A stretch of DNA of 41,330 bases from Candidatus Nomurabacteria bacterium (GCA_963832025.1 CAWHSF010000004.1:1-41330); one strand, 5' to 3'. Positions 1 through 39,792 are shown, numbered from the stretch's first letter. A program made the numbers and translations. The notes: generated by a model from the letters alone, not told the origin.

Positions 1-291
1 TCTGCCTCACCATTTCAAGAGCCAAAACCACCCGGCATTTCTTTCTTTTCAAGACCTTAACGGAATCACGGAGGAGCCTAATCACGGTCCTTTGTGCTTG
101 AGACAGGGTGTGATAATCTCCACAAAAAACGATATGAGAATTTAAAACGGAGAGTAAGAGTTCTCGTTTCGTGGAGACTTCCCGGAAATCCTGGAAGTCT
201 TTTTGATATTCCCTGAAGTATTTTTTTAACTCGGGAGAAAATAAAATCCGCCCAGAAGATTTCGGGCATACCTCTTCAACCGATCGTACAT
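1..291 (-). pseudogene. Partial hypothetical gene (5' part; runs off the window edge; frame change near 235)
   Basis: Minus-strand ATG at 291 gives MYDRLKRYARNLLGGFYFLP. After a frame change it continues ELKKYFREYQKDFQDFREVSTKRELLLSVLNSHIVFCGDYHTLSQAQRTVIRLL... to position 1. No family recognised with confidence. Confidence 0.25.
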
Positions 292-328
292 GATACGTTG
301 GATCCGAATTAAATGGGTACGAGGCAAC

Positions 329-1704
329 ATGATTAAAGTAGAAACTTTAAAACCAATTTTAGCTCAGACCGCGGCACTCTGGCTTTCTGGCAATGGTTCC
401 CTGCACCGCTTCCAGCAAGCCCGGAACCGGGGCACAAGGGCGAGTTGACGCTTGAGAGTCTTCTTAAGAATACGCTGTCCTCAAACGGCATGATCCAGGA
501 AGCCGTTCAGGACATCGAGATCGCGCGTTCCCAAACTCCAAACTGGCTGATCTGCCCTTTATCCCAAGGCCAGCGCGATGATCATTGGAGCTCCGATCTT
601 TGAGGAGAGAGGCAATGCGCTGCACTCCCAATCGAACTGGGGAAACTGGGGACCATTTTTTACGGGAGGGATCCAAGTCGTCGAGCCCCTTTATTCCTTT
701 GGAATGATAAGCAGCTATCAAAAAGCGGCGGAAGGGCAGGTCAACGCGAGAACTGAGCTGGCCGAGGTCAAGCGGTGGACGTGCTGAATCAAACGAAAGA
801 GATTTACTATGGTTATCGATTGGCAACGGATTTGGAAAAGTTGGTCGATGATCTCAGCTCTTTTCTTCAAGATGCGGTAAAAACCGCGGAAGAAGCTGTT
901 AAAGAAAAGAAAAAGTCAGCGGTGAAACCTCACGATTCCTATCACCTAAAAACGGCGTTGGACGATCTGGAACAGAAAAGACTTTATGCAAAAGCCGCAA
1001 AACAAACCGCCGAGCGCGCGGTTTCGTGGCTATCCGGTGTCAAATTCGCCTCTCGCCCCCGCGTCCCCCCAGACCTTTACCCTGCTGCCGATGGAGGAAT
1101 ACATCAAGATTGCCAAGGCCAATCGGCCAGAGTTTAAAGCGCTCTTGGCCGGACAAGAAGCTCGATCGGCGCTAAGAGACGCTAAACGTGCGCAAAGTTA
1201 TCCGATTGTTTTGCGGGGAGTTATGGGTTCGATAGGATGGACCCCCGTACGGGACAGACAAGATTCCGTTTTCGCTTACGATCCCTTCAATGCGATGACC
1301 GGAGGAGTCGGACTGGGGTTGAAATTCGATCTCGAGTTCGCCCGGCACTCCGCCGAAGCGCACGAACAGGACGCTGAGTTAATGAAACTCAAAGCGACTG
1401 AGAGCTGGGCTGCGCCAGGGATTGAACTACAGGTGAGAAAAGCTTTCTGGGAACTGGAACAAGCGAATGACGGGTTAAAGATCGCAAGCGATCGCAAGAC
1501 TCTCGCGAAAAAATGGTTTGTTTCCAATGCGATGGGCTGGTCCATCGGGATTACGCCGGCGAAGGATCTCTGGAATCTTTGGAGGGCGACGGGTTTTTGA
1601 GAAGAAATTAGATCCAGACCGTATACGCCCTTAATTTGGTGCTATCGCACCTTAGCCAAGCGGTCGGAAAGGAAATTACGAATTTGGAATATCGCAGTCA
1701 CTAA
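329..1704 (+). pseudogene. TolC-like outer-membrane efflux factor, at least 4 frame breaks
   Basis: ORF pieces 578-787, 775-1137 and 986-1600 plus untracked ends join into one protein: ...LTLESLLKNTLSSNGMIQEAVQDIEIARS..., ...EEYIKIAKANRPEFKALLAGQEARSALRDAKRAQSYP..., C-terminus ...YALNLVLSHLSQAVGKEITNLEYRSH with stop at 1702-1704. The two-repeat OMF-like pattern fits the TolC family. Confidence 0.65.
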
Positions 1705-2487
1705 CCAATGAATCACTTCCTCACCCTTCCCCCACTGCGCTTCAGCCTTAGAAAGAAAAAAACCGCCATCGCCACTTCCTCTAGAACCATCAAGTAGAGC
1801 CCCGTCTTGCTTTCCCCTTCCTGCGGGACCGTAGGTTACTTTTCTCGCCGGGCTTCTTCTTTTTCGCCTTCAGATGACTTTGCAGAACTCTTTGCTGAGT
1901 CTGACCGATTCCGGAGCCCCTCCCCTTGCTTCGAGGCCACAGCCAGGTCGAAATCGTTGTTCGTTTTGATACATGACCATCTTTTCGAACTGTGGAGCCA
2001 AGCGAGAGTAGTGTTCATTGGTAACCATGTAGTGGATTAAAATAGCCAAGCGGTTTTGAACAGTCGCAACAGAGCGAAGACGAAAACCCAGGAAGTTCCG
2101 ATTCGTACTGGAGGGAGTCGACCCGAAAGCGTTCCGCGGATATTTCGACGGCGCGTATAGCTCACCTTAGGTTTATGTCGTTTCCGGTTTCATCTTTGTA
2201 CGTTCTGGGCTTTTTGAGATAGTCCTCAACTTCAGACCGTCCCATTGCGTCGCAATGGTGGCAATCGACATCACTAGTGATTCATACCGATCCGGATTGG
2301 TGGTTCCCTGACAGTAAAAGGTCCCCTGAGTCAGTTCACACTTCCATCGCTGGGAGATTAAAAGACACATATTGTGTTTGAAGCGCAAATGCAGATGAGG
2401 CGAATAGAATACTTAAGAAAAAAAGTCTCATTTCTGTGTCTCCTACCTGAAATTGTACCACAGAGACGACGTGTCCCTATATATCGA

Positions 2488-3598
2488 CTACCCCCCCACC
2501 GCTTCGTCGATTTGCGCTTTGAGTTCCGAAGATCTGCCCATAAAGCTCTCCCGAGGATCGAGCGTCTTTTGAATGGGCGTACCCGGGACATGGCGAATAA
2601 GAATTTTGGAAATATGGTTTTTGAAGTTAGCGGTTTCACAGATCCGACGATAAATTTGCAGATCCATTTCTCCACTGTCTCCGATGAGAATGCATTTTTG
2701 GTTTTCAAGGTTGCTCATGATTTTTATGAAGAGTTCTCCACTTATGTCCAAAGCGCCCGTATCCCAGCCAACGCATGAACAAAGGCCCTTCGGGAAACCC
2801 CGTTCACGCAAGAACTTCAAAAGAAACGGAGCCAGCTGGTAAGGCGTGCTCGTCACGTAGATGATCATCGAATTCTTCGCTGCGAGCGATTGGTATAACT
2901 CCGCCATTCCCTCGATCGCCTCATACTTATAATAGTGCCCCCGGAACAAACCACTCACTATTTGCTTGAATCCAGTTGTCTCGGAGATCTCTGGAGTCTT
3001 TGATCGTATCGTCGATATCAGAAACGATCACCCACTTCACATTTTCATTCAGAAAATAAACCGGCGCGCTGAGAACTTCGTAGTCCCCCAGACGAACAAG
3101 GCCCAGCAACGTCTCAACACCCACCGGGCTCTTTATTCGAAGCCATGCCATTTGAGAAGCTTTCCAGGGAAGGGTCCACGGCAGTTGCAAATGGACAAAA
3201 CCGCGGTTCTCGGTACTGGCCTCAACGGTACGCAAAGAATTTTCCGTCATCGCCAGCTGAAAACGAATCCGCTCGAAAAACTCGAGATCGGGGATCCCTC
3301 TTAAGATGCGATGCAGTAAACGGCGGGGGCGAAACCCCAAAACCTCTTCTTGAGTTCCGTTATAAACCACGGCTTGGAGCGAAGTGAAATTACGCGTCGC
3401 GAGCGTCGGGATTGCAACGATCGATTTTTGGGGCCGATAAAGATCTAACGCCTGAAGACATTTAAAAAATATCACCTCGAAGGTCTTAAAGAATCGAAGC
3501 CAGCCCGCCCACCACTTGGGCCGCGGCAGATCGGTGAGTCGAAGCCCCGAGCGAAGCAAATTCTCTGGTTTTTCTTTGATCCGTTTCATCTTCGACAC
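2488..3598 (-). pseudogene. App1-like phosphatidate phosphatase (DUF2183), one frame break near 2940
   Basis: ORFs 2927-3598 and 2488-2958 join. Motifs: VIVSDIDDTIKDS (DxDxT), IIYVTSTPYQLAPFLLKFLRERGFPKG, and ILIGDSGEMDLQIY. Confidence 0.55.
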
Positions 3599-3663
3599 AA
3601 AAACTTCAGCTTTCCTTCACAGTTTCCGAAAAGTCAGTCATAAGGATCCGCTAATCTCCCCCA

Positions 3664-4769
3664 ATGAAACCCAACTACTTAAGGCTCTTTTTTCTCTTTC
3701 TCCAGATCTATGTCCTCATACTATTCCTTTCGCCATTTTTGAGAACGGCGTTAGCTCTGAATGAAACTTTTGAAATCTATAATGCGCCTCAAAGCCTGGG
3801 AATGGGCAATGCACTCACCGCTGACGCAACTGGATACACGGCACTTTATCACAATCCGGCAGGGCTGGCTTCGTTCACGAAAAAGAAAATGGAATTGACG
3901 GTGGTGGATCTGGAGGGAATTCTTGGGCAAACGCCCTAGAACTTGCAGCCTCCGCTCAAACACTCGGTATCTACCGCCTCTTTAGCCCGATGGCAAAAAA
4001 CGCGGGAAAGTATACTTATTTTAACTGGGCCAGCGTCCCCTCCTTCACCGTCCGTGGCTTTGGTGTTTCGCTGCTGGGAAGCTATCAATACGCGGGTCTC
4101 TCCGATGGAACCAATATCGATATCGACGCGAATGAAGATGTCGGCATTGTCGCGGGGTATGCGAAATATTTTGCCGGAAACGTCATTAAGCTCGGAGTAG
4201 ACGTGAAGGGTCTTGTCCGAAACGAAATGAAGGGTGTTTACGCCTTTAGCACACTGGCGACTTACAACGATCAAACTTTTCCGTCGCTCTTTAGGGAAGG
4301 GGCTGCCGTCGGAGCGGACAGCGGAATGATTATCACTCTGCCAAACAACTGGCTGCCCACATTCGGCGTCGCCTGGAGAGATATGTTCAACACGCAGTTC
4401 ACCCACACCCATATTATTAATTCACGCGCCAGCGGGACTCCGGACAATATTGGACAGAGCATCAACACCGCTTTTTCCGTTCATCCCTTTTTCAGCCGCC
4501 AGTTAAAATCCACGATTGCCCTCGAGTATAAACACTGGGAAGCCCAAGACTGGCCTTTGAGAAAACACGTGCACTTTGGGATGCAGCTGGAGGATGAAAA
4601 AAGCCTCTACGCTTGGCTGGGACTGAATCAACTCTACTTAACCTTGGGCCTTGGGTGGAGGGTCAAAGGCGGTACACTGGAAGCCGGTACTTACGGTGAA
4701 GATGTCGGAGACAATAACAACCCCGTGCAGGATCGCCGCTTTTTCTTTCGTTACACTATTGGGTTCTAA
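3664..4769 (+). pseudogene. Signal-peptide beta-barrel outer-membrane protein, one frame break near 3925
   Basis: Hydrophobic N-terminus, motif GMGNALTADATGYTALYHNPAGLA, alternating beta-strand pattern, and C-terminal ...FFFRYTIGF (terminal Phe). ORFs 3664-3939 and 3990-4769 join via ...WANALELAASAQTLGIYRLFSPMAKNAG. Confidence 0.5.
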
Positions 4770-5866
4770 ATGAAACGAATACTTTTACTAATTTTCTTTT
4801 CCCAAATCGCAACTGCGCAACTCACGCATTTTGAATTTGAAGGAGTTAGACAGACCGGAATGGGAAATGCGGGGATCGCTATCGCCGATGATGCCAACGC
4901 CCTTTGGTATAATCCGGCCGGCCTGTCTCAGATTAAAAAAGTTCATTTCGATCTCTTTGACTTTACGCTCGGAGCGGACTCCTTGGATAGCCTGAATCGG
5001 ATGCAAAACGCTATCTTTCACGGCAATTACAGCAATATGCTCCGGCCCAACTCTGAGTTTTTGCGCTTTAACGTTACACCGACACTTGCGATCCCAAACT
5101 TTGCCCTTAGTCTTTTCGAGACGGCTCGGGGTTTTTTCGATCTCCAAAACCTGACCTCCCCCAATCTATCCTCCAGCGTCCAAGTGACAGCTCATAACGA
5201 TCTGGGCGCGATCGCAGGGATATCCATTCCTCTGCTGGATGTTTTCTCTGTTGGATTTTCGGTCCGCGCTTTTGAGCGTACGGGGCTCGACGTCAATCTA
5301 ACCGCACAAGACCTCATCAATCAAACGGGAACTTCCAACCCAACGACTCTACTCAACAATTTATACAGCTCCTTAAAAGATATGGCGGGAACCGGAACAG
5401 GGATCGGGTTAAACACAGGGGTTCTAGCACATATCCCCTTGCGCGGAAAAGCCGGGTACCGATTGAACTTAGGGGCCACCGTGGAAGATGTTGGAACACT
5501 TCGTTCACCAAAATAGGAAATCTCCCCCCTCCTCCATCGATACCCCAGAGCATTAACTTTGGGACTTCCCTGCAGTCTCCCATTGGAAAGAACTGGATCT
5601 GGAACAACACTCTCGATTACAGAAATTTTCAAGAGCATGACGCCGTTTTGAAACACATCCACTTCGGAACAGAAATTCGTCACGAGGTTTTTGGTTTACG
5701 TGCGGGAGTGTATGAAGGGTATTGGACCGCAGGCTTCAGCATCGAAACGCCTCCCCACACCAAGATCCACTTCTCGACGTATGCGGTGGAACTTGGAAAC
5801 GAACCCTTGCAACGGTCGCAACGATGGTATCTCGTGCAGCTGATTATTGGGTTTAATCCGCTGTAA
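4770..5866 (+). pseudogene. Paralogous beta-barrel outer-membrane protein, one frame break near 5505
   Basis: Starts one nt after the previous stop. Signal peptide MKRILLLIFFSQIATAQ and the same motif GMGNAGIAIADDANALWYNPAGLS. The tail continues in the frame of ORF 5648-5866. Confidence 0.5.
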
Positions 5867-5885
5867 TCTTTGTTTCCCTCGCCGC

Positions 5886-7046
5886 CTACCCGTAGATCAA
5901 TATTTTTAGATAATCCCCTTCCGGAAACCCAACCGGGTGATCGTCTTCAGGGCTTAACCCTTTGATCAATTTCAAAGTCCCCGAAAACTTTTTCCGCCTC
6001 ATTGCGAAACTTCGGTCTTGGGATTCGCGATGTGCAACAACACACAACGATTCTCCCGCCGGGGGAAAGATGTGGCAACGCCGCCTTGTAGAGTTGCCGG
6101 TACGCACGAAGGGCGTTTGGCACCTGAATCTTTTGGCTCGCCATCTGGGGAGGGTCGATGATGATGAGATCGAATTTCTCGTTGGGAGACATGGATTCGA
6201 TCCATTTAAAATATCCGCGCAGATCCATTTCTGATTTTTTTCGTTCAGACATGGTTCTGCTCGTCTCCAAAAACTCCCTGGGAAATATCGACGTTCCAGA
6301 TCTCGCTGGCTCCGGCGACTTCAGCGGCGAGACCCAACGTTCCTGAGTAGCTAAAAAGATTAAGCACTTTCTTTTTGGGGAGTTTTTCCATGGAAAGCCA
6401 TTTTCTTAGGCCCCGAAGATAGAGAAAGGTGCCGCTTTTTCTGCCCCGATCCAATCTCAACGGTGAGCTTGAGTTTCCCTTCTTGAAAAGACAGGGCAGG
6501 AGGAATTTTGCCGTAGAGGGCGGCGATTACGGGCCTTTGTTCCTCCAAAGTTTTTCGCTTCACCGGCGGTTTCCATACCATATTTTTTAATTTCAACTCG
6601 TCTCGCAGAATCCATGCCAGATAACGGCCCAAAGCATCCACCGCGTTCGAGTAGGTTTGCAAAACGGCCGAATCCCATAGACATCGATCACAATCCCGGG
6701 AAAACCATCATTCTCACCATGAATCGCGCGAAATGCCTCGGTATACTTCCTTAAGTTCTCACGCTTCTTAAGCGCCGTTTGAAGCTGAGAACGAAACCAT
6801 TCGGGACCGGGAGGATCTTTACCCTTTTTCAAAACGCGAATGCCAATAAGCCCTTCTTTTTCATAGATCCCATAGCCAACGACCTCATTCTTCGCATTCA
6901 CGATCTTAAGCCGATCGCCGTTTTTAAAACACATCAGCGGCACTGCTCAGATGGGTCCTAAAGATCCAGGGATGACCCGCATTCAAAACGATAATCGCGT
7001 CTTTCGTGGCTTGATAGCGCTTCGGGATGAGCTTTTTCGTACGCAT
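5886..7046 (-). pseudogene. rlmI: RlmI-like SAM-dependent rRNA (cytosine-C5) methyltransferase (PUA plus MTase), at least 4 frame breaks
   Basis: Fragments 6593-6943, 6360-6662, 6245-6460, 5947-6270 and 5886-6107. Motifs: NGDRLKIVNAKNEVVGYGIYEKEGLIGIRVL (PUA-like), AIHGENDGFPGIVIDVYG, KKVLNLFSYSGTLGLAAEVAGASEIWNVDIS (SAM site), FDLIIIDPP, and the tail ...DHPVGFPEGDYLKILIY. Confidence 0.6.
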
Positions 7047-7060
7047 AGAAGAAGGACAAC

Positions 7061-7938
7061 TTAGCCGAGGCGCGCTATAGGCTCAAGTCCCAATTTCAAG
7101 GGTGTAATAATCGTCGAAATAGCCTTGGAAGCAGAAAGATCCACCGCACCGAAAACCGCGGTCAGGCTAAAAAAGCTGAGCAGCGCCTCCCAGTGTCTCA
7201 ACCAGTCAGGAATAAAATGCGGAGGCTCGATAATCCCATGCGTTCTTAACCAGGCCAACGTTCCCACATCTTCCAGCGAAATCCGTCCGCAAACCAGGGC
7301 ATCTACGAGAAGGCGATTCTGGTTTTTCACCGCAATTCGGAGAAAATTATAAACACCCAGGTAACCCCGCGAGATACACCCCGTCTTTAGTAAACGGGCC
7401 TCCGCCAGTGAGCTTAGCGCCTCGAAAAACGCGCTGGGTGCTGAAAAATGCCTCCATCTCGGTTTCGCTTCGATCCTTATACCAACGGTAAGCTGCATCA
7501 AATCCGCACCTTGCTCCACTAAATCCAAAGCTTCAATTCGATAACATAGAGCCAAGAAACGGCGGTGGAGACATCGTGTGGCCGTACACACCTCATAAAA
7601 AACGGCAAGACCTTCTGGGTCATCGTCGTTGGGGTCCTCCCCCGGAATAAAAAATCGCAGGCGGCGTGGCGGGCCCCATTGTGTGCGGTAAGACAGTGGG
7701 ATTCGATTTCATGATCCAAAGCGCTGAAAGATCGATCGTGGAAAATCGGGCTTCTTTGCGCACGCGGACCCGGTTCATTCCGGCGACAACCTTCGCCACC
7801 ACCTGGTCGGTGACTTCCACTCGCACCGGCATCGTGGGCCTTCGCCCTGCAATTTCTTCTCTCCAACTCCCGCGCGAATTCGTCTGACGATTTCATGACG
7901 ATCGACTCGTCCATGTCGTTCAACGCACAGACGGACAT
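7061..7938 (-). pseudogene. Hypothetical protein with frame breaks
   Basis: Overlapping minus ORFs 7061-7591, 7620-7832 and 7519-7938 appear to be pieces of one gene. No family recognised. Confidence 0.25.
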
Positions 7939-8004
7939 TCTGCCTGGAAATCGCCCTCTGCCAACTCCAGGTTCGAAATCTTACAGAGTGGAACATATCG
8001 AGGT

Positions 8005-15797: not shown

Positions 15798-17645
15798 ATG
15801 AACAAAGAAATAAGAATTCAATTACGTAATTTTTTTAAAGGGGATATAGATGATAGTGAAGCGACACTCGTGCAATATTCTCACGATGCGAGCTTACTTG
15901 AAGTAAGACCAAAACTAGTGCTTTTTCCGCAAGATTCGGAAGATGTAAAAAATTTAGTGAAATGGGTTTCAGAGAATAAAGAAAAATATCCTGAGCTTTC
16001 CATTACGGCTCGTTGCGCGGGGACAGATATGTCCGGCGGAGCAATCGGGGAATCAATAATTTTGGATTTCACAAGATATATGAACAAGTTGATAAGTTGG
16101 AACCAGCTCCCAAAAAATTCTTCCGGATTACTCTACCCTGCGGGTGGAACCTTCCCCGTTCAGAATTCTTTGGAAGCTCATTCCATTACTGTTCAACCCG
16201 GAATGTTTTATAGAGATTTTGAAAAAATTACTTTAGGAAAAGGTTTAATTTTACCTTGTTTCACCGCCTCAAAAAGTATAAATGCTGTAGGCGGAATGTT
16301 TGGAAATAATTCTGCCGGGGAAAGAACTTTGAAATATGGAAAGACGGAAGATTACGTTTTAGAAGCTAAAGTCATATTTGCTGATGGAAATGAGTACCTT
16401 GTAAAGCCACTCAGTCGCGATGAATTGAATAAAAAAATGTCGCAAGGGGATTTCGAGGGAAATGTTTATAAAAATATTTTTGATTTGATAAATAAAAATG
16501 AGGACGAAATAAGATTAGCCAAGCCAAAAGTTCATAAAAATTCAGCCGGATATTATATTTGGAATGTGCTAAGTCCGGAGCCGAAGAAGAATTTTTTGGC
16601 TTTCCTCCAGCCTTCGGCCGGAACCTTCCGCCAGCAAAATTCTCCTTCGGCTCCTGCCATGCAGAGCGATAATTATTTTAATTTAAACAAATTGTTGGTT
16701 GGTTCGCAGGGAACATTGGGAATTGCGACCGAAATTACCTTTAAAGTAATACCGGACAATAAACATTCTAAACTTGTCGTGATATTTATGGAAGATATGG
16801 CGCCCCTCGGCAGATTGGTGGATGAAATTTTGACTCTTAATCCGGAAACACTAGAAACTTATGATGACAAAACGATGAAACTGGCAGTAAAATTCTTTCC
16901 GGATTTTTTAAAGAATAAAGGCTTTATTGGCATGTTTAAATTCATGTTATCTTTCTTGCCGGAATTTTTTATGATGGTCACCGGTGGTTTTCCGAAATTA
17001 ATTATTCTGGCCGAATTTGCTGGCGTTGACGAAGAAGACGTAAATGAAAAATGTGTAGCACTGGTGGAGAAAATAAAAGACTTTAAATTAAAAGTTCACA
17101 TCACTAAATCCGAAACAGAGGCAAGTAAGTATTGGGATATCAGGAGAGAAAGTTTTGCCTTGCTCCGAAAGCACATAAAAGGTATGCGCACTGCTCCATT
17201 TATAGACGATATTATTGTTCGTCCGGAATTTTTGCCTAAATTTCTTCCGGAATTAAACAGTATTTTGGTAAAATATCCCAGTTTGACTTATACCATCGCT
17301 GGTCATGCCGGAGATGGAAATTTTCACATCATTCCATTGATGGATTTCAAGCGTCCTGATACCGCTCAGATAATCCTAGAATTAGGAGAAAAAGTTTATG
17401 ATTTGGTCATAAGATATCATGGTTCTATAACCGCCGAACATAATGATGGTTTAATCCGTACGCCATATTTACGCAAAATGTATGGAGATAAAATCATTCA
17501 AATTTTTACCGAAATTAAGAAAATATTTGATTCGAAAAATATTTTTAATCCCGGTAAGAAAATTGCTACAGAAAATCTCGGTGGAACAAAAGACTACATT
17601 AGAACGCATATTGCCGAAGAGCATGATGCGGTGCACAAAGTTTAA
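15798..17645 (+). CDS. FAD-linked oxidase (GlcD / D-lactate dehydrogenase family) carrying two in-frame palindromic inserts
   Basis: Intact 615-aa ORF. FAD-binding region ...ITARCAGTDMSGGAIGESIILDFTRYMNK... and C-terminal ...AGHAGDGNFHIIPLMD...GSITAEHNDGLIRTPYL. Confidence 0.75.
   Translation: MNKEIRIQLRNFFKGDIDDSEATLVQYSHDASLLEVRPKLVLFPQDSEDVKNLVKWVSENKEKYPELSITARCAGTDMSGGAIGESIILDFTRYMNKLISWNQLPKNSSGLLYPAGGTFPVQNSLEAHSITVQPGMFYRDFEKITLGKGLILPCFTASKSINAVGGMFGNNSAGERTLKYGKTEDYVLEAKVIFADGNEYLVKPLSRDELNKKMSQGDFEGNVYKNIFDLINKNEDEIRLAKPKVHKNSAGYYIWNVLSPEPKKNFLAFLQPSAGTFRQQNSPSAPAMQSDNYFNLNKLLVGSQGTLGIATEITFKVIPDNKHSKLVVIFMEDMAPLGRLVDEILTLNPETLETYDDKTMKLAVKFFPDFLKNKGFIGMFKFMLSFLPEFFMMVTGGFPKLIILAEFAGVDEEDVNEKCVALVEKIKDFKLKVHITKSETEASKYWDIRRESFALLRKHIKGMRTAPFIDDIIVRPEFLPKFLPELNSILVKYPSLTYTIAGHAGDGNFHIIPLMDFKRPDTAQIILELGEKVYDLVIRYHGSITAEHNDGLIRTPYLRKMYGDKIIQIFTEIKKIFDSKNIFNPGKKIATENLGGTKDYIRTHIAEEHDAVHKV
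16106..16177 (+). repeat. Palindromic element family A, copy A1 (in frame in the FAD oxidase)
   Basis: Arms gctcccaaaaaattc / gaattctttggaagc (13 of 15 complementary). Core ttccggattactctaccctgcgggtggaaccttcccc. Translated LPKNSSGLLYPAGGTFPVQNSLEA. Confidence 0.8.
16577..16654 (+). repeat. Palindromic element family A, copy A2 (in frame in the FAD oxidase)
   Basis: Arms ggagccgaagaagaatttt / aaaattctccttcggctcc (18 of 19 complementary). 78 nt. Translated EPKKNFLAFLQPSAGTFRQQNSPSAP. Confidence 0.8.
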
Positions 17646-25050: not shown

Positions 25051-25476
25051 ATGGCCACAATTTCAAACAATGACATAGCTCGTGCAATATATTTATCGAC
25101 AAAAGATAATAATTTGGAGGTCTTGCCTCCAAGTGGAGGCAAGACTTCCAAATATGCCAACATCGTTCAATTTTTATACAGGAAAAGATTATTGTTGCAA
25201 GCCCCAGACATTCTTTCTCGCTTGGACAAAATAATTAACGAAGCGGACGGAAGGATTGTGGTCAAGTTATCAAGCAAAGAACATTTAACAGAAAACATCA
25301 AAAAAGAAATCGCGCAAATTTTAAAAGAACGTTATGCAGCAGAAAAAATTATTTTCGTAGAAAGTTTAAATGAAAAATTGCTTGGAGGATTTAAAATAGA
25401 AGTAAATGATGAAGTAATAGATTTAACAATCAAAAACAAAATTGGAAAATTACAAGAATATTTAACATCATACTTT
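25051..25476 (+). CDS. atpH: F0F1 ATP synthase subunit delta (short); no stop codon before the atpA ATG
   Basis: ...LLGGFKIEVNDEVIDLTIKNKIGKLQEYL is a typical OSCP C-terminus. The reading frame continues directly into atpA. Confidence 0.7.
25114..25151 (+). repeat. 38-nt palindrome inside atpH
   Basis: ttggaggtcttgcctcca ag tggaggcaagacttccaa (17 of 18 complementary), read as LEVLPPSGGKTSK. Confidence 0.7.
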
Positions 25477-26981
25477 ATGAGCACAAACCATATCGTAGAA
25501 AATTTAAAAAAGGAAATAGAAAATTTTTCCGCTCAAATCAAAGTTGAGAAAGTCGGCAAGGTACTGGAACTTTTCGACGGTATTGCCAAAGTTTCCGGAC
25601 TTTCCGATATTAAATCTTCCGAAATGGTGACTTTTCCAAATGGTGAGACGGGTGTGGCGCTAAACTTAGAAGAAGATACCGTTGGCATAATTATCTTTGG
25701 TGATTTTTCTAAAATTAAAGAAGGAGATGAAGTAAAAGCCACCGGTAAAATTTTGGAAGTTCCCATCTCTGATGCCATTTTGGGTACGAGTGGTAAATGC
25801 AATCGGTGCTCCGATTGATGGTAAAGGCGCAATTAAAGCAAATAAAACTTATCCAATTGAAAAAGTTGCATCCGGGAGTAATTACTCGTCTAAAAGTGAT
25901 CAACCGATGGCTACAGGCATCAAAGCGATTGATGCAATTATTCCGATTGGAAGTGGCCAACGAGAACTCATCATCGGAGATAGACAGACTGGTAAAACAG
26001 CCATTGCCATTGATACAATTTTAAACCAAAAGGGTCAAAACATGATTTGTGTTTATGTTTCTATTGGACAAAAAGATTCCAAACTTCGCAAAATTACAGG
26101 CAAGATTGGAAGCTGGTGGAGCTATGGAATATACGGTAATCGTTTCTGCAGGCGCTTCGGAAGCTGCAGCGCTTTCTTATATCGCTCCTTATACTGGAGT
26201 TTCTATTGCTGAATATTTTATGGACCAAGGCAAGGACGTTTTGATTATTTACGATGATCTTTCCAAACACGCTGTGGCTTATCGAGAAATTTCTCTTTTA
26301 CTTCGACGCCCTCCAGGCCGTGAAGCATATCCTGGAGATGTCTTTTATTTGCACTCACGTTTGCTTGAACGTGCTTGTCGCAAGAACGAAAAGTATGGTG
26401 GTGGGTCTATTACTGCTTTGCCGATAGTGGAGACACAAGCCGGAGATGTGTCCGCTTATATTCCGACCAATGTCATTTCCATCACGGATGGACAGATTTT
26501 TTTGGAGACAGATTTATTTTATAAAGGCATTCGTCCAGCAGTAAATGTCGGTCTTTCTGTTTCTCGCGTCGGTGGAGATGCTCAAATCAAAGCGATGAAG
26601 AAAGTCGCCGGTAACGCTCAAGCTGGATCTTGCGCAATTTCGAGAACTAGAAGCTTTCGCGCAATTCGGTTCCGACCTCGATGAATCAACTAAGCGTCAG
26701 CTTGAACGTGGCAAGAGAGCAGTGGAAGTTTTAAAACAGCTTCAATATTCGCCGATTAAAGTTGAAAACCAAGTTGTGACCCTTTATGCTCTCACCAAAG
26801 GCTACATGGATGATGTTGCGGTTGAAAAAATAAAAGAATTTGAAGAACAACTCGCTTCAATACGCAGAACACAATGCAAAAATTTTCTTCAAAGAAGTTA
26901 GCTGAGAAAAAAATGTGGACCGAAAAAGGTGAAGAAGAATTAAAAACAGTAATTGGAGATTTTAAAAAGAATTTTAGTTAA
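25477..26981 (+). pseudogene. atpA: F0F1 ATP synthase subunit alpha, at least 5 frame breaks
   Basis: MSTNHIVENLKKEIENF..., [87 protein letters not shown], and ITDGQIFLE are found in different frames. Confidence 0.9.
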
Positions 26982-29902: not shown

Positions 29903-30600
29903 TGTCTAAATTTTATGTAATTGCGACACCGATAGGGAACTTGGGAGATATTACTCTCCGAGCCATAGAGACATTAAAAAGTGTTGATTTGATATTGTGC
30001 GAAGATACACGTGTCACAAAAAATCTTTTAAATAAATATAATATCAATAAGCCTACGATGAGTTACCATGCTCAGAGTAAACTCAGTAAAACTGAGAAAA
30101 TTTTTGAATTACTGGAGGAAGGCCTGCCTGCCGGCAGGCAGGGAAAAAATTTAGCTTTAGTGTCAGACGCAGGAACACCAGGAATTTCTGATCCTGGCGC
30201 GATGTTGATTTCTCAAATTAAAAAAAAGTTTAGTGAATCAGAGGTTCAGATAATTCCGATTCCTGGAGCCACAGCTATCATCACAGCGCTTTCTGCTTCA
30301 GGTTTACCAACTCATGAGTTTACATTCTTGGGGTTTTTACCACACAAAAAGGGGAGAGAAACTTTATTTAAAGAAATAGCGGAAGCTAAAAGAACAATGG
30401 TCTTTTATGAATCCCCTCATCGTATTTTAAAAACCCTGGAATCTTTACAAAAATTTTGTCCAGATAAAAAAGTTTGTATTGCTCGAGAGCTCACAAAAAT
30501 TTATGAAGAATTTAAAACTGGAACACCCACTGAAGTATTGGAATATCTAACAAAAAATCCAGTGAAACAAAAAGGGGAGTTTACGGTTTTAATTGCCTAA
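29902..30600 (+). CDS. rsmI: 16S rRNA (cytidine1402-2'-O)-methyltransferase with a 7-aa palindrome-encoded insert
   Basis: FYVIATPIGNLGDITLRAIETLKSVDLILCEDTR...ALVSDAGTPGISDPG...YESPHR. Confidence 0.85.
   Translation: MSKFYVIATPIGNLGDITLRAIETLKSVDLILCEDTRVTKNLLNKYNINKPTMSYHAQSKLSKTEKIFELLEEGLPAGRQGKNLALVSDAGTPGISDPGAMLISQIKKKFSESEVQIIPIPGATAIITALSASGLPTHEFTFLGFLPHKKGRETLFKEIAEAKRTMVFYESPHRILKTLESLQKFCPDKKVCIARELTKIYEEFKTGTPTEVLEYLTKNPVKQKGEFTVLIA
30123..30142 (+). repeat. 20-nt perfect GC palindrome family B, copy B2 (in frame in rsmI)
   Basis: cctgcctgccggcaggcagg read as LPAGRQ(G), between ...LLEEG and KNLALVSDAGTP. Confidence 0.75.
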
Positions 30601-33964: not shown

Positions 33965-34012
33965 ATGTTCAACGTCAAGGCTCCCAGACGTTGGACGTAT
34001 GTAACGCATCTA
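33962..34012 (+). repeat. Nested palindromic element family D, copy D2
   Basis: tagatgttcaacgtc aaggctccca gacgttggacgt atgt aacgcatcta. The mreB TAG stop is the first 3 nt. It fills the gap to the holB ATG (34019). Confidence 0.7.
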
Positions 34013-34018
34013 GAATTT

Positions 34019-34783
34019 ATGAACCTAATCCAATATTTAGATAAAAATAATTTACACCATGCGTATCTAATAGAAGGAGCGCGAAATGAGATTGTTCCAG
34101 AAATTATAGATTTTTTAAAAACTATAGGTGTAAATACAACCGGCAATCCGGATTTTATTTCAATTGCAATTGACAATTTTAAAACTGAGGAGGCTTTCGA
34201 TTTACGCGCAATGTCGTCGGATAAAAGCTTCGGAACAGGTAAAAAAATATTTTTGATTTGTGCCAACAGTTTTTCCTTGGATGCCCAGAATGTTTTACTC
34301 AAGATGTTTGAGGAACCGAAAGAGAACACTCATTTTTTATTGGTTGTGCCTGATATAAATACGCTTTTAAAAACGCTTGTTTCAAGATTTTATGTTATTG
34401 TCACTAAATCCGATTTAAAAGAAGAAATAAAAAAAGCAGAAAAATTTACTGCTATGTCTTTAAAAGATAGAATCGATTTTGTCAAAGAGTTGTTGGCTGA
34501 GATAGAAGAAGAGGACGAAGAAGGAAACGAGATTATTACGCTAGACTCAAATCGTTCCAAAGCTTTAAAATTTTTAAATGCGCTTGAAGTTGTTTTAAAC
34601 GGCAGGTTGGCAAAGAATTTTTCCGGATTACTCCACCCTGCAGATGAAACCTTTCCCATTCAAAATTCTTTGCCAACCTGCCTTGAACACCTTTTCAAGG
34701 TTCGAGAATTTCTTCGTATGCCCGGGAGTTCAGCAAAGAAGCTTATGGAATCTATTGCTTTGATTATTCCAGAGAGAATATGA
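34019..34783 (+). CDS. holB: DNA polymerase III delta' subunit with an in-frame family-A insert
   Basis: MNLIQYLDKNNLHHAYLIEGA...KIFLICANSFSLDAQNVLLKMFEEPKENTHFLLV...LVSRF. The track start at 33965 reads through element D2. Confidence 0.75.
   Translation: MNLIQYLDKNNLHHAYLIEGARNEIVPEIIDFLKTIGVNTTGNPDFISIAIDNFKTEEAFDLRAMSSDKSFGTGKKIFLICANSFSLDAQNVLLKMFEEPKENTHFLLVVPDINTLLKTLVSRFYVIVTKSDLKEEIKKAEKFTAMSLKDRIDFVKELLAEIEEEDEEGNEIITLDSNRSKALKFLNALEVVLNGRLAKNFSGLLHPADETFPIQNSLPTCLEHLFKVREFLRMPGSSAKKLMESIALIIPERI
34601..34682 (+). repeat. Palindromic element family A, copy A3 (in frame in holB)
   Basis: Perfect 21-nt arms ggcaggttggcaaagaatttt / aaaattctttgccaacctgcc. Core ttccggattactccaccctgcagatgaaacctttccc. 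Read as GRLAKNFSGLLHPADETFPIQNSLPTC. Confidence 0.85.
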
Positions 34784-35356: not shown

Positions 35357-36459
35357 ATGAGTATAGTTATTTTTATTAATAATTTTATTGGTTTTAGTTT
35401 TAGTCCATGAATTTGGACATTTTTTTACCGCGAAAAGATTTGGAATCAGGGTGGATGAATTTGGTTTTGGCTTTCCGCCAAAATTATTTGGTATAAAAAA
35501 AGGAGAAACTGAATACACTTTAAATTTATTACCACTTGGTGGTTTTGTGAGAATTTTTGGCGAGAGTCCTGATGAAGAAAACATAAACGGTCCTGATGCC
35601 AGTAGAAGTTTTGTAAACAAAGCCAAATGGAAACAAGCGCTAGTTCTATTTGCTGGAATTTTTGCGAATTTTTTATTGGCATGGCTTTTATTTTCTTTTT
35701 GTTTTATGTCTGGACTTCCGACTTCTATTGATAGCGAACATAGCTGGCAATCAACTTTCTAATGTCCACTTAGTGGTAGTTTCTGTGTTACCAAAATCTC
35801 CCGCCGAACAAGCTGGATTAAAAACTGGTGATAAAATTATGAGTATCACGTAATGGTAAAAATTCCACAACTAACATCAGCCCAGAAACAGTTCAATCTT
35901 TTGTACTAGATAGCGCAGGAAAAGAAATTGATATTGGATATACTCGTGGCAAAACCCAGAAATAAATCAGGCAAAGATTATTCCGGTTGAAAATAAAACT
36001 GACAACAAGCTGGAAATCGGTATATCTATGGATACAAATAGGCACAGCCAAATTGCCTTTTTTCCAGCCATTTGGGAAGGATTGCGTCTAGACTGGTCTA
36101 TCGCTAAAGAAACCACGATAGGGCTTTATACGCTTGATTATGAGGGTATACAAGGCAAAGGTAGCTTTTCTGAAGTAACTGGCCCAGTAGGTATGGTGGG
36201 CATAGTAGGAGATGCCTATAATTTTGGCTTTGTTTATCTTTTGTCTTTTATGGCTTTAATTTCTATAAATCTTGCAGTTATAAATTTAATTCCATTTCCG
36301 GCTCTTGATGGTGGAAGATTATTCTTTTTATTGATTGAAAAAATAAAAGGTTCGCGTATAAATCCAAGAGTTGCGAATACTGTAAATACTGTTGGTTTTT
36401 GTATTTTAATGTTTCTCATGCTTGTCATTACCTATCACGATGTGGTGAAATTGTTTTAA
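35357..36459 (+). pseudogene. rseP: RseP-type site-2 (M50) zinc metalloprotease, at least 4 frame breaks
   Basis: HEFGHFFTAKRFGIRVDEFGFGFPPKL...LLPLGGFV, PDZ piece VVSVLPKSPAEQAGLKTGDKI, and C-terminal NLIPFPALDGGRLFF. Confidence 0.8.
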
Positions 36460-37404: not shown

Positions 37405-39792
37405 ATGGCCAAAAAAAACAAAATTAGCGTGGCGGTATTGTGCGGTGGACCTTCTTTAGAAAGAGGAATTTCTATGAATTCTGCTCGAAGTGTTTTGGAT
37501 CACTTGGGTAGTTTGGGAGTAGAAATTGTTCCTGTATATTTTAATGAAAAAAAGAAAGCTTTTAAAATATCTACTGCGCAACTTTATTCAAATACTCCTA
37601 GTGACTTTGATTTTAAATTAGCTATATCGGGCAAAGAGCTTTCCAACTCCTCTCTCATAAAAATTTTAAAAAATGTTGATATTGTTTTTCCGTGTATTCA
37701 TGGAACTTTCGGCGAAGATGGCGAACTCCAAGCATTTTTGGAAAAAAATAAAATTCCATTTATTGGCTCTTCTGCCAGAGCTTGTAAGATGGCCTTCGAT
37801 AAGCACCGAGCAAATGAATATATTCGTTCGTTGGGATTTTTTGCTCCATCATCTATTGTCATTAAAATCACCGATACAAAAAAAGAAATTACGGAAAAAG
37901 TAAAAAATTTGTGGGAAAATGAAAAAATCACTCGCGCTATTGTAAAGCCTGCTTCCGGTGGTTCCAGTATCGGTGTGTTTTCAGTCGAAAATATTTCCGA
38001 TGCGTTAAAAAATATTGAAAATTTATTTAGTAAGCGTATGGATACGCGTGTGGTAATTGAACCATTTGCAGAAGGCCAAGAGTTTACCGTGATTATTTTG
38101 CAAAACAGATTTAATATGCCGGTTGCTATCATCCCGACAGAAATGGAAATGGATTATGATAAGCATCAATTTTTCGATTTCCGTAAAAAATATTTACCAA
38201 CAAGGCAAGTAAAATATCATTGTCCTCCAAGATTTCCTAATGAAATTATTGAAAAAATCCAAATTCAAGCTGAACAACTTTTTTCTGTTTTTGGGATGAC
38301 TGATTTTGCGCGATTTGATGGTTTTTTCATGCCCGATGGCAATATTTGGTTTTCTGACTTTAATCCGATTTCCGGTATGGAACAAAATAGTTTTCTTTTT
38401 CAACAATCTTCTCGTATTGGTTTTTCACACCAAGATCTTTTACGTTATGTTGTTAATAATGCTTTCTTGCGTCGAGATATTCCGGTTTCAGTAGGAAACA
38501 GTTTTCTGAATGAAAGCAAGATTTCTCGCAAGCCAGTTGCTGTATTGTTTGGTGGCGAGACTGCCGAAAAACAAGTTTCTCTGATGAGTGGCACAAATGT
38601 TTGGCTCAAATTGCGTGGCTCTAAAATATATAAGCCATATCCGTATCTGCTGGCTAAAACAGGTGAAGTGTGGGAATTGCCTTATTCTTATATTTTAAAT
38701 CACACCGTAGAAGAAATAATAGAAAATGCAAAAAAAGCAGAAGATGATATCGAAAGATTATTTTTCTTAATTGAAAAAGTAAAAATAAAATTATGCTTAC
38801 ATACATCCGATGTCACGGAAGATTTTTTTATGCCACGAAAGCATTTGTTAAATGATATTTTAGATAAATATAAATTTACTTTTTTGTCTTTACATGGTGG
38901 GGCCGGTGAAGACGGAACCTTGCAAAAAATTCTAGAGAATAAAAAAATAAAATACAATGGTTCAAATAGCGTTGTTTCTAAATTATGTATGGATAAATGG
39001 ACAACTAACGAAATTATTAAAAACGTCAATATAAAAGGTGTCAGTGTGACACCGCACATTCTACTCAAGATAAAAGATGCTCCAAAAAATCCAAATTCAT
39101 ATTGGAATATGCTTTTAGAAAAATTAGAAACCAAAACAATTCTGGTTAAACCAAGAGGCGATGGTTGTTCTGCAGGGGTAGTTCGGCTCTATAATAAAAA
39201 AGATTTGGCAAATTATATTTCTTTAATAAAAAACAAAAAACTTATAGCTTCATCTGGCACTTTTACAAATCAAAACAGCGTTGTAGATATGCCGGAAGGT
39301 GAAGTGAGTGATATTATTTTTGAATCCTTCATCGAAACCGACAAATTGAAAGTCAGTTCCGGAAAAATTATTCATAACAGGAAAACTGGTTATGTAGAAA
39401 TGACTGTCGGTGTTTTTGAGCAGAACGGAAAAACACAAGCATTTTCACCTTCCATCACGATTGCCGAAGCTTCTATTTTGAGTGTGGAAGAAAAATTTCA
39501 AGGTGGTACCGGAGTAAATATTACACCCCCACCAAAAGAAATTATTTCTGTAAAAAATCTCAATAAAGTAAAAAAATCAATTGAAATTATCGCCAAAAAA
39601 ATTGGTATTCGTGGTTATGCCCGCATAGATATTTTTGTTCAAATTCAAACCGGCAACATTATTGTGATAGAGATTAACACTCTACCTGGGCTTACTCCTT
39701 CTACGGTAATTTACCATCAAGCCTTGGCGGAGAGTAAGCCAATATTTCCAAAAGAATTTTTAGAATTATTGATAAAAAATAAAGGGTATTAA
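37405..39792 (+). CDS. ddl: Tandem D-alanine--D-alanine ligase fusion (two complete ATP-grasp Ddl modules, 795 aa)
   Basis: Module 1: ISVAVLCGGPSLERGISMNSA...CIHGTFGEDGELQAFLE...VKPASGGSSIGV...DFNPISGM. Module 2 (from about 38527): KPVAVLFGGETAEKQVSLMSG...SLHGGAGEDGTLQKILE...VKPRGDGCSAGV...EINTLPGLTP. Confidence 0.8.
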   Translation: MAKKNKISVAVLCGGPSLERGISMNSARSVLDHLGSLGVEIVPVYFNEKKKAFKISTAQLYSNTPSDFDFKLAISGKELSNSSLIKILKNVDIVFPCIHGTFGEDGELQAFLEKNKIPFIGSSARACKMAFDKHRANEYIRSLGFFAPSSIVIKITDTKKEITEKVKNLWENEKITRAIVKPASGGSSIGVFSVENISDALKNIENLFSKRMDTRVVIEPFAEGQEFTVIILQNRFNMPVAIIPTEMEMDYDKHQFFDFRKKYLPTRQVKYHCPPRFPNEIIEKIQIQAEQLFSVFGMTDFARFDGFFMPDGNIWFSDFNPISGMEQNSFLFQQSSRIGFSHQDLLRYVVNNAFLRRDIPVSVGNSFLNESKISRKPVAVLFGGETAEKQVSLMSGTNVWLKLRGSKIYKPYPYLLAKTGEVWELPYSYILNHTVEEIIENAKKAEDDIERLFFLIEKVKIKLCLHTSDVTEDFFMPRKHLLNDILDKYKFTFLSLHGGAGEDGTLQKILENKKIKYNGSNSVVSKLCMDKWTTNEIIKNVNIKGVSVTPHILLKIKDAPKNPNSYWNMLLEKLETKTILVKPRGDGCSAGVVRLYNKKDLANYISLIKNKKLIASSGTFTNQNSVVDMPEGEVSDIIFESFIETDKLKVSSGKIIHNRKTGYVEMTVGVFEQNGKTQAFSPSITIAEASILSVEEKFQGGTGVNITPPPKEIISVKNLNKVKKSIEIIAKKIGIRGYARIDIFVQIQTGNIIVIEINTLPGLTPSTVIYHQALAESKPIFPKEFLELLIKNKGY

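Follow-up and report, generated by a model that had tools for sequence, protein, structure and literature searches.

In-frame palindromic repeats have, to our knowledge, been treated as a near-unique oddity of Rickettsia. The positions of these Rickettsia palindromic elements (RPEs), which Ogata et al. described in 2000 and 2002, are reportedly compatible with the surface of the host proteins, and the elements are said to show no transposase, terminal-repeat or target-duplication signature. RPE-1 to RPE-10 are repeated palindromes that lie in frame in unrelated housekeeping genes, each giving a conserved peptide, and their positions are compatible with the host-protein surface (PMC10969869); in the account cited in PMC6649704, RPEs lose repeat identity over time. 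The palindrome that we describe here, in the holB-like gene of a Candidatus Nomurabacteria bacterium, belongs to a family that resembles RPEs in consisting of in-frame repeated palindromes within unrelated housekeeping genes, in a bacterium of reduced genome, with a conserved peptide from each copy and no transposase, terminal-repeat or target-duplication signature. The likeness is one of class, not of sequence, and RPE membership is not claimed: the family is found in another phylum and is about half as long (85-100 nt with a 52/58-nt core, compared to ~150 bp for RPEs). Unlike RPEs, the stems of this CPR family stay paired via compensatory changes and its core has diverged far less than the host genes; also unlike RPEs, it has private outer arms, occurs in both orientations at one site and has no intergenic copy among the 70 collected.

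For the coding palindromes of Nematomorpha mitochondria, maintenance by arm-to-arm conversion or template switching has been proposed, together with a parasitic character, and phase 1 is the least constraining phase for coding palindromes (PMC6649704). The CPR family is similar to these in that it consists of perfect or near-perfect inverted repeats in genes, is dynamically gained and lost between species and prefers phase 1. The Nematomorpha repeats, however, do not form a family of scattered copies around a common core; conserved native protein sequence is encoded by their arms, and they reach up to 284 bp, in an organelle genome. Yeast GC clusters and the byp elements of Magnusiomyces are likewise short hairpin-forming repeats dispersed in protein-coding genes; byp elements are untranslated and the ribosome hops, whereas the CPR elements are open in frame in every copy, have AT-rich arms and are bacterial.

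REP/BIME sequences with RAYT and hairpin MITEs (Correia, ERIC and IS200/IS605-derived palindrome-associated elements) are overwhelmingly extragenic and present in high copy, many with target-site duplications or a linked enzyme gene, and some hairpins of the REP/MITE type are recognised as single-stranded DNA by HUH enzymes. The CPR family shares with these groups the small imperfect hairpins, the conservation of both sequence and mismatches and the concerted evolution within a genome; it differs from them in that a genome holds ~8 copies, each inside a gene and in frame, and in that neither a duplication nor an enzyme was found. In full-text literature searches, we came across no account of such elements from CPR bacteria. 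The combination that sets the family apart from RPEs and from the Nematomorpha repeats is a short core, conserved well past the level of neutral sites, with private covarying arms, both orientations at one site, strictly intragenic location, low copy number at recurrent sites and a genome-uniform subtype. On a modest balance of probability, we consider it to be a translated protein-coding palindromic repeat of the RPE kind, with predicted active correction of the arms, known so far solely from Nomurabacteria/Paceibacteria-type CPR bacteria.

The holB palindrome and the oxidase copies

The window, that is, the whole 41,330-nucleotide stretch of DNA that was analysed, contains on the + strand two 21-nt arms, at 34601-34621 (GGCAGGTTGGCAAAGAATTTT) and 34662-34682, that are 100% complementary and separated by a 40-nt spacer, just as an earlier note made from the sequence alone had described them. 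The arm sequence occurs at no place in the window beyond these two positions, and none of 100 dinucleotide shuffles yielded such an arm match. The 92-nt region folds at -35.8 kcal/mol on the + strand (z = -7.5 against shuffles) and at -44.7 kcal/mol on the - strand (z = -7.0). As delimited by nhmmer and an alignment of 54-70 copies, the part common to the family is only the 58-nt conserved core of subtype a (34613..34670, + strand), in which the inner arms AAGAATTTT and AAAATTCTT enclose a 40-nt centre that forms a small apical hairpin of its own. The 12 outermost nt of both arms, on the left at 34601..34612 (GGCAGGTTGGCA, + strand) and on the right at 34671..34682 (TGCCAACCTGCC, + strand), are private to the holB copy and pair perfectly with each other.

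The host gene (33965..34783, + strand) encodes a holB-like DNA polymerase III delta-prime protein of 272 aa (Pfam DNA_pol3_delta2, E = 2e-16; homologs are named delta-prime subunit by JGI). The element is indeed read in frame, the peptide GRLAKNFSGLLHPADETFPIQNSLPTC being part of this ORF, and NFSGLLHPADETFPIQNSLPTCLEHLFK is one of the predicted tryptic peptides across the insert. The first and the last base of the palindrome both occupy codon position 1 (phase 1, first codon positions pairing with each other), which accounts for its length of 82 nt (3n+1), and the one-nt boundary offset that had seemed necessary for an insertion of whole codons vanishes. The edge of the palindrome is not the edge of the insertion: the net difference from the closest element-free allele (L001) is 57 nt, or 19 codons. 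In the AlphaFold2 model of delta-prime, the core-encoded residues 217-232 form a coil between two helices with pLDDT <50, and the arms of the element lengthen the two flanking helices.

Between 34300 and 34900, no terminator-like site was found on either strand, the element lying within an uninterrupted ORF; a GC-rich stem followed by a T run, as in intrinsic terminators and attenuators, is not present in the element. None of the promoter-like matches listed in the scan overlaps it. At the gathering score, Rfam 15 identified two tRNAs only in the whole window, and lenient Rfam scans of two copies returned only generic miRNA-precursor hairpin matches far below threshold.

A palindrome of this kind might be produced by an assembly or sequencing artefact, such as a fold-back chimera in a long-read assembly, and the assembly is not clean: the RseP gene is split by a frameshift (35388-36459), and the first 8 kb of the window are compositionally foreign. 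The identical 82 nt, however, are present in an independent Logan short-read contig (L003), the holB protein of which is 99% identical, and homologous elements are found in dozens of independent MAGs and metagenomes. Because the same 82 nt were recovered in an independent short-read assembly, the palindrome is not an assembly artefact, a reading to which we assign a negligible probability.

The earlier note had further identified the palindrome as a member of a repeated family, and this is borne out by three copies in the window and ~70 unique copies elsewhere. The other two copies in the window belong to a single gene for a FAD-linked oxidase of 615 aa (15798..17645, + strand; Pfam FAD_binding_4 and FAD-oxidase_C). 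The copy at site O1 (16099..16184, + strand; peptide LPKNSSGLLYPAGGTFPVQNSLEAH) is of subtype a and has decaying arms, with ~15/18 positions paired; its centre (16122-16161) is identical to the holB centre at 34 of 40 positions (85%, against the ~80% given previously). The copy at site O2 (16577..16654, + strand; peptide PKKNFLAFLQPSAGTFRQQNSPSAP) is a divergent subtype a with 19-nt arms that are 95% paired, and its centre (16596-16635) matches that of holB at 24 of 40 positions. All three copies share the reading frame and encode related peptides (KN[FS]SGLL.P...TFP.QNS). A candidate fourth copy, with the peptide 'SSGTFTNQNS' at 39199, is neither a palindrome nor an nhmmer match and was rejected as a chance resemblance; an inverted repeat at 30331-30436 was also discarded, being imperfect and located within conserved native RsmI sequence. 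Another family of coding palindromes has a copy in the window at 25112-25153.

Distribution of the family and turnover at its sites

All 922 detectable holB homologs come from Nomurabacteria/Paceibacterota (CPR bacteria), and in an alignment of 30 of these, a segment is present at the equivalent place in most and absent in a few. Several of the loci used in the analysis come from the Hainich groundwater wells. To compare the site at the DNA level, we fetched 80 holB loci from metagenomes and examined the region between the conserved KFLNxLE and FKVR motifs. The family element occupies the site in 31 of 67 distinct orthologs, with 23 copies in the sense orientation and 8 flipped; a short mini-palindrome ([AG]TGTCAAAG-N3-5-CTTTGACA[CT], peptide SKxxFD) is found in another 22, and the remaining 14 have neither or carry an unrelated palindrome. 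The four apparent peptide types at this site reduce to two at the DNA level: the 'KNFEHGRFHPEDGVKWKNS' type is the reverse complement of type a, the type of the window, and the 'KNSEWCGSHSVLREGSSQKNFS' type stands in the same relation to type b, which is commoner. The unrelated palindromes that the site houses include the SKxxFD mini-hairpin, single or doubled, and, in L067, a pair of perfect 22-bp arms.

The states of the site are intermixed across the holB tree. The comparison with empty sites that the earlier note had proposed turned up holB genes without the element, including the closest relative found (L001, protein P0005; 81% aa identity), which has the short form, so the segment is not a feature of every relative. 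The suggestion of a recent insertion, drawn from the perfection of the arms, fared less well: the same site is occupied in those 31 of 67 orthologs at 60-70% protein identity, by two subtypes and in both orientations. The holB copy is not a private recent event: its site has been a target either for a long time or repeatedly, and its contents turn over rapidly.

To delineate the spread of the family, we searched the genomes of 185,579 species, one for each, with a DNA pattern that covers both inner arms. The scan yielded 87 loci, of which 49 were true copies by nhmmer; all 49 belong to MAGs of Nomurabacteria, Paceibacterota or other CPR bacteria. In other phyla, the pattern matches are wrongly spaced and lack core similarity; an archaeal match, in Iainarchaeum, has type-b spacing, lacks core similarity and is attributed to chance. 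The same holds for five pattern matches in viral contigs, with wrong spacings of 48, 56 or 57 nt, and no phage carrier is shown by them. A profile built from a 45-aa alignment of 12 copies and compared with 5.8 billion proteins returned 101 candidates, none of them significant; the peptide motif is too short for database-scale E-values. An HMM search with the 68-column core found no extra copies in ~800 kb of holB flanks; the density of the element is low.

Every one of the 70 unique copies lies in a long ORF and in a single reading phase (phase 1), 60 in the sense orientation and 10 flipped. These copies are distributed among eight sites in six genes, which encode, by Pfam, delta-prime, the FAD oxidase (two sites), UvrA, UvrC (two sites), LeuRS and MnmA. 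Both empty and filled orthologous sites were found for holB, O1, O2 and the first UvrC site. At O1, the element is present in L102, L104, L153, L157 and L167 and missing in L138 and L140, and in L106 the site is occupied by a different palindrome family; O2 is filled in eight further genomes and empty in L102, L157 and L167. Two features of the RPE-kind class are thus present together, namely, a repeated family with hairpin potential (70 copies, with core HMM match E-values of 1e-9 to 1e-22 and a consensus hairpin that is 95% paired) and in-frame copies in several unrelated genes for which empty orthologs exist.

Within a genome, the copies tend to be alike. A single subtype is found in 11 of the 12 multi-copy genomes, and at 6 of the 8 sites some genomes have subtype a and others subtype b; the similarity of the core between different sites of the same genome (0.81) is greater than that between the same site in different genomes (0.72). 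Furthermore, private compensatory variants are common to both copies of L104, and the two copies of L153 have identical cores. This pattern in the sequences indicates putative conversion between copies, or a repeated re-seeding of the same sites.

The family is part of a broader abundance of palindromes. We counted 283 perfect stems of at least 14 bp in 1.22 Mb of these genomes, compared to 1 in the shuffled sequence; among 117 unique perfect stems, 75 lie inside long ORFs, 26 of these belonging to the present family and 49 to others. Different palindrome families can fill one and the same site, as at O1 in L106 and at holB in L067.

Anatomy, pairing and ends of the element

The copies are 85-100 nt long and consist of the conserved core (52/58 nt), with the inner arms AARAATTYT and ARAATTCTT, and the private outer arms. 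Subtype a has a 40-nt centre and subtype b a 46-nt centre, the difference being mainly 6 extra nt in the apical hairpin of b; the centre comprises two small internal helices and conserved unpaired bases. The outer arms (8-14 bp) differ in sequence in every copy and pair within each copy: the private arm positions are 83-98% Watson-Crick paired, compared to 25-45% between the arms of different copies. RNAalifold, applied to the alignment of 54 copies, predicts 28 pairs, of which 21 show compensatory double changes, pairs inside the core among them. The fraction of paired cells is 95.1%, against 71.9% in column shuffles and 35-54% with slid partners, and the covariation score is 0.608 against 0.162 in shuffles. 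An A.C mismatch at one arm position recurs in ~60% of the copies. At one orthologous site, such as O2, the arms are unalignable across genomes, with each pair near perfect, and it follows that the pairing is maintained in place. Covariation thus lends strong support to the earlier proposal that pairing is actively maintained.

No target-site duplication was detected, 52 of 54 copies having a direct repeat of 0-1 nt at the stem ends. The characteristics of MITEs and other non-autonomous transposons are accordingly missing: there is no duplication, and the outermost arms are not conserved between copies. In the loci examined, which are partial contigs, there is no transposase beside a copy.

At the first UvrC site, the native flank can be recognised in the left arm (RGKNLKNEKN directly followed by VFGP, compared with RGKQLSENEN[...]VFGP), of which the right arm is an inverted copy; the short forms at holB resemble simple fold-backs of the same flank. 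A general rule by which every right arm copies the native left flank by folding back was considered and rejected: it fits the first UvrC site and plausibly holB, and at O1 neither arm resembles the empty alleles. Fold-back copying is at best part of the story.

The same observations bear on the possibility that the palindromes are purely a mutational by-product, each made locally from a quasi-palindrome when replication switches template in a weakly repaired genome, and involve neither a mobile nor a shared element. The abundance of unrelated coding palindromes in these genomes, the several unrelated palindromes at the holB site, the absence of target-site duplications and the one site with an arm like an inverted copy of the native flank would all be compatible with such an origin. 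Nevertheless, independent origin is impossible for a 52/58-nt core that is ~87% identical at 8 sites in 6 unrelated genes of dozens of genomes. Local switching explains the arms, not the shared core, so that as an account of the whole element this explanation appears quite unlikely and survives only as a mechanism that makes or maintains the arms.

As RNA, the minus strand of the element folds better than the plus strand in 70 of 70 copies (mean -46 versus -36 kcal/mol). We do not take this asymmetry as proof of an antisense RNA, considering the common ancestry of the copies and the location of the main A.C mismatch at a synonymous Lys position.

Nucleotide conservation, predicted translation and proposed maintenance

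To measure conservation of the element against that of its host gene, mean pairwise identities were calculated for 21 holB orthologs with type b. The core is 87.6% identical, compared to 69.5% for the host coding sequence at all positions, 52% at third positions and 45% at synonymous third positions, where the changes are saturated. The identity of the core is virtually the same between sense copies (0.865) and between sense and flipped copies (0.869), although the peptides are unrelated, and conservation therefore acts at the nucleotide level. The unpaired bases of the internal loops are nearly invariant across subtypes and sites. At the same time, third codon positions of the element are more variable than first and second positions (0.47 versus 0.31 bits), and the frame in use is open in 54 of 54 copies, the second sense frame in 50 of 54, with the frames +2, -1 and -2 mostly closed. 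The open frame and the third-position excess argue for translation of the insert, which we accordingly predict.

Translation raises the question of whether the peptide itself is the selected entity, in which case the loop KNFSGL(T)L..P..G.T..VQNS would be retained for interaction, modification or targeting and the palindrome would be incidental. The use of one frame at all 8 sites even where the second sense frame is open (50 of 54 copies), the somewhat greater variability of third positions and the excess of sense over flipped copies (60 versus 10) are what a peptide module would predict. The flipped copies at the holB site, however, encode the unrelated peptide KNSEWCGSHSVLREGSSQKNFS with equal nucleotide conservation, and third positions, for all their excess, are still far more conserved than those of the host genes. 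Such a motif needs neither a palindrome nor private paired arms; AlphaFold2 models it as a low-confidence coil, and any coding palindrome is least constrained in phase 1 (PMC6649704). Selection on the peptide is thus a very unlikely explanation.

Removal of the segment from the product, either by excision of an intervening sequence (cleavage of the RNase III type and religation) or by a byp-like hop of the ribosome, would give a mature protein without the segment. A long perfect stem would draw the two flanks together, and the Magnusiomyces mitochondrial bypass hairpins, as cited in PMC6649704, offer an analogy. A bypassed segment, however, needs neither openness nor phase, whereas 70 of 70 copies are open in the host frame with three other frames mostly closed, and the variation depends on codon position. 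No copy is free of an open in-phase frame, as bypassed or excised segments could be, and we regard this scenario as highly improbable.

A weightier challenge comes from the nucleotide conservation. The element could be a functional DNA or RNA hairpin, embedded in essential genes and kept by purifying selection, that a conserved trans-acting factor recognises, the peptide being a tolerated by-product. Candidate factors include a HUH/Y1-type single-stranded DNA enzyme, as with REP or IS200/IS605 hairpins, and a dsRNA-binding nuclease that sets mRNA half-life; alternatively, the hairpin could give rise to an antisense or processed small RNA. This possibility is consistent with the identity of the core (0.876) relative to host synonymous sites (0.45), its equal conservation in both orientations, the near invariance of the unpaired loop bases across subtypes and sites, the very strong covariation, which extends inside the core, the persistence of the A.C mismatch in ~60% of the copies, where it is not 'corrected', the better RNA fold of the minus strand in all 70 copies, and the retention of the same few sites over deep divergence.

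Against a functional hairpin, many lineages have no element at each given site and the states are intermixed on the holB tree, which implies that it is dispensable at any single site. Decaying copies occur, including both oxidase copies in the window, and flipped copies persist even though an element that acted through its mRNA strand should lose its loops on flipping. Drift from AAG to AAA under AT pressure, synonymous in the Lys codon of the left arm, can account for the strand asymmetry; neither a matching Rfam family nor a signal of a promoter or terminator was detected, and no candidate factor was found. A functional hairpin of this kind seems to us doubtful, but, sustained by the strong nucleotide conservation, it is the main rival. 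A related formulation, which we entertain tentatively as a possible though minority reading, is that the core is a hairpin selected at the nucleotide level with a putative dedicated trans-acting factor: this could be either a site-specific mobile hairpin that homes to a few loops of essential genes and is homogenised in each genome or a structured element used by the host, with the arms kept paired by selection or by correction linked to an enzyme.

The interpretation that we favour, a translated palindromic repeat of the RPE kind with active arm correction, would work as follows. The ribosome would read through the hairpin and add a disordered loop of ~20-27 aa, as suggested by the openness of the frame, the mild third-position excess and the AlphaFold model. 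The family would spread, or would once have spread, by copy-and-paste within a small set of preferred sites, with none of the classical signatures of a transposase: a nascent strand may switch template into a donor copy via the AT-rich microhomology of the inner arms and may then fold back and copy its own upstream flank. Conversion between copies would homogenise the core within a genome, and exchange between the arms of one copy would invert the core in place. The stem would be preserved by arm-to-arm correction, that is, hairpin-templated template switching or conversion, and not by benefit to the host, so that the element would be selfish or neutral DNA that essential proteins tolerate in their surface loops.

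Three observations sit uneasily with this interpretation. A passively copied selfish repeat should drift, and yet the core is 88% identical where the host synonymous sites are saturated (45%); judging from these sequence comparisons, its conservation would require that the sequence be under purifying selection or be frequently re-seeded by horizontal transfer. The element is confined to ~8 sites, with the same few recurring, which is more site-specific than passive template switching predicts. Finally, the fold-back model has no obvious fit at O1.

For practical purposes, the inserts inflate and disturb the alignments of core genes used in CPR phylogeny, and the hairpins of the elements may cause errors of assembly or polishing. 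The clean features of the family, namely, ~8 recurrent sites, genome-uniform subtypes, both orientations, covarying private arms and a conserved core, make it testable, from metagenomes, metatranscriptomes and proteomes already available for groundwater, whether such an element is selfish, maintained by template switching or functional. Collectively, the discovery of an unrelated family, along with many other coding palindromes, in the streamlined genomes of CPR bacteria suggests a general route to the gain of protein loops in reduced genomes.

A recurrent A.C mismatch in the main-family stem

Alignment of the copies of the main family of hairpin-forming, in-frame repeats (alignment A4) reveals an A.C mismatch at one arm position in about 60% of the copies, across insertion sites and genomes. 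The mismatch involves columns 19 and 78 of the alignment, which correspond to positions 34616 and 34667 of the window, paired with each other in the holB copy; its context is AAAAAATT in the left arm opposite AATTCTTT in the right arm. In the copies with the mismatch, the remaining stem stays paired, and the affected position is a synonymous third base in a Lys codon. Possible explanations for the recurrence of this mismatch are AT pressure and conservation as a structural mark.

A distinct coding palindrome and the quality of the assembly

The window also contains a perfect coding palindrome distinct from the main family (25112-25153, with a stem of about 19 bp and a 4-nt loop), which is read in frame as NLEVLPPSGGKTSKY close to the N-terminus of the ORF at 25051-25818. 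The corresponding peptide family, NLEVLPP.GG.TSK, with variants including DLAVKPPIGGLTAK and NLVVGVPSGTPTTK, is found also within ORFs of the metagenomic loci L025, L037, L050, L067, L070, L073, L074 and L087. The ORF contains a second in-frame Met (MSTNHIVENLKKEIEN...) through which the reading continues and, judging from the sequence, looks like a fusion of two neighboring genes, perhaps those for the delta and alpha subunits of ATP synthase; such a fusion would suggest an assembly frameshift or a missing stop codon.

An RseP/site-2-protease-like gene (35388-36459) is broken up into ORFs that overlap or adjoin one another, three in all (35388-35762, 35650-35853 and 36028-36459), and fragmented genes are likewise present in the related long contig L001; these breaks are probably frameshift errors of long-read assembly or, failing that, pseudogenes. 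The GC content is 47-53% in positions 1-8000 compared to 32-46% elsewhere in the window. This segment encodes fragments of outer-membrane proteins (OEP/TolC-like and FadL/TodX-like) along with MATCAP-like pieces, which are split across short ORFs. Such composition and gene content are atypical of a CPR genome, and therefore, the segment may represent a chimeric join or foreign DNA.

Other palindromes at and near the main-family sites

Of the 67 distinct holB orthologs compared, 22, including those from L078, L033, L074, L001, L034, L035 and L075, have a mini-palindrome at the holB site, [AG]TGTCAAAG-N3-5-CTTTGACA[CT], with the peptide SKxxFD. In some cases, it is doubled to form a long hairpin, and it was detected also in a different gene (L133:4671). 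This element may be either a separate small family or a simple product of fold-back copying. The holB site of L067 (10544-10663) harbors an unrelated, perfect palindrome with 22-bp arms (CATCACAGGGGAACCCTGTGTA ATTA CACAGGGTTCCCCTGTGATG) that is read in frame.

Within UvrA, a further family of coding palindromes (L131:4363, L090:1851 and L088:7055), with the peptide ..PGLG....KKQKSL.LA.G.., is located several hundred nucleotides away from the family-A/B site of this gene. At O1, the first of the two main-family sites in the FAD-linked oxidase gene, the palindromic insert in L106 belongs to another family and has the arms GAGCCCAAGAAGACAAATCATTTTC and GAAAATGATTCATCTTCTTGGGCT; thus, one and the same loop is used by different families.
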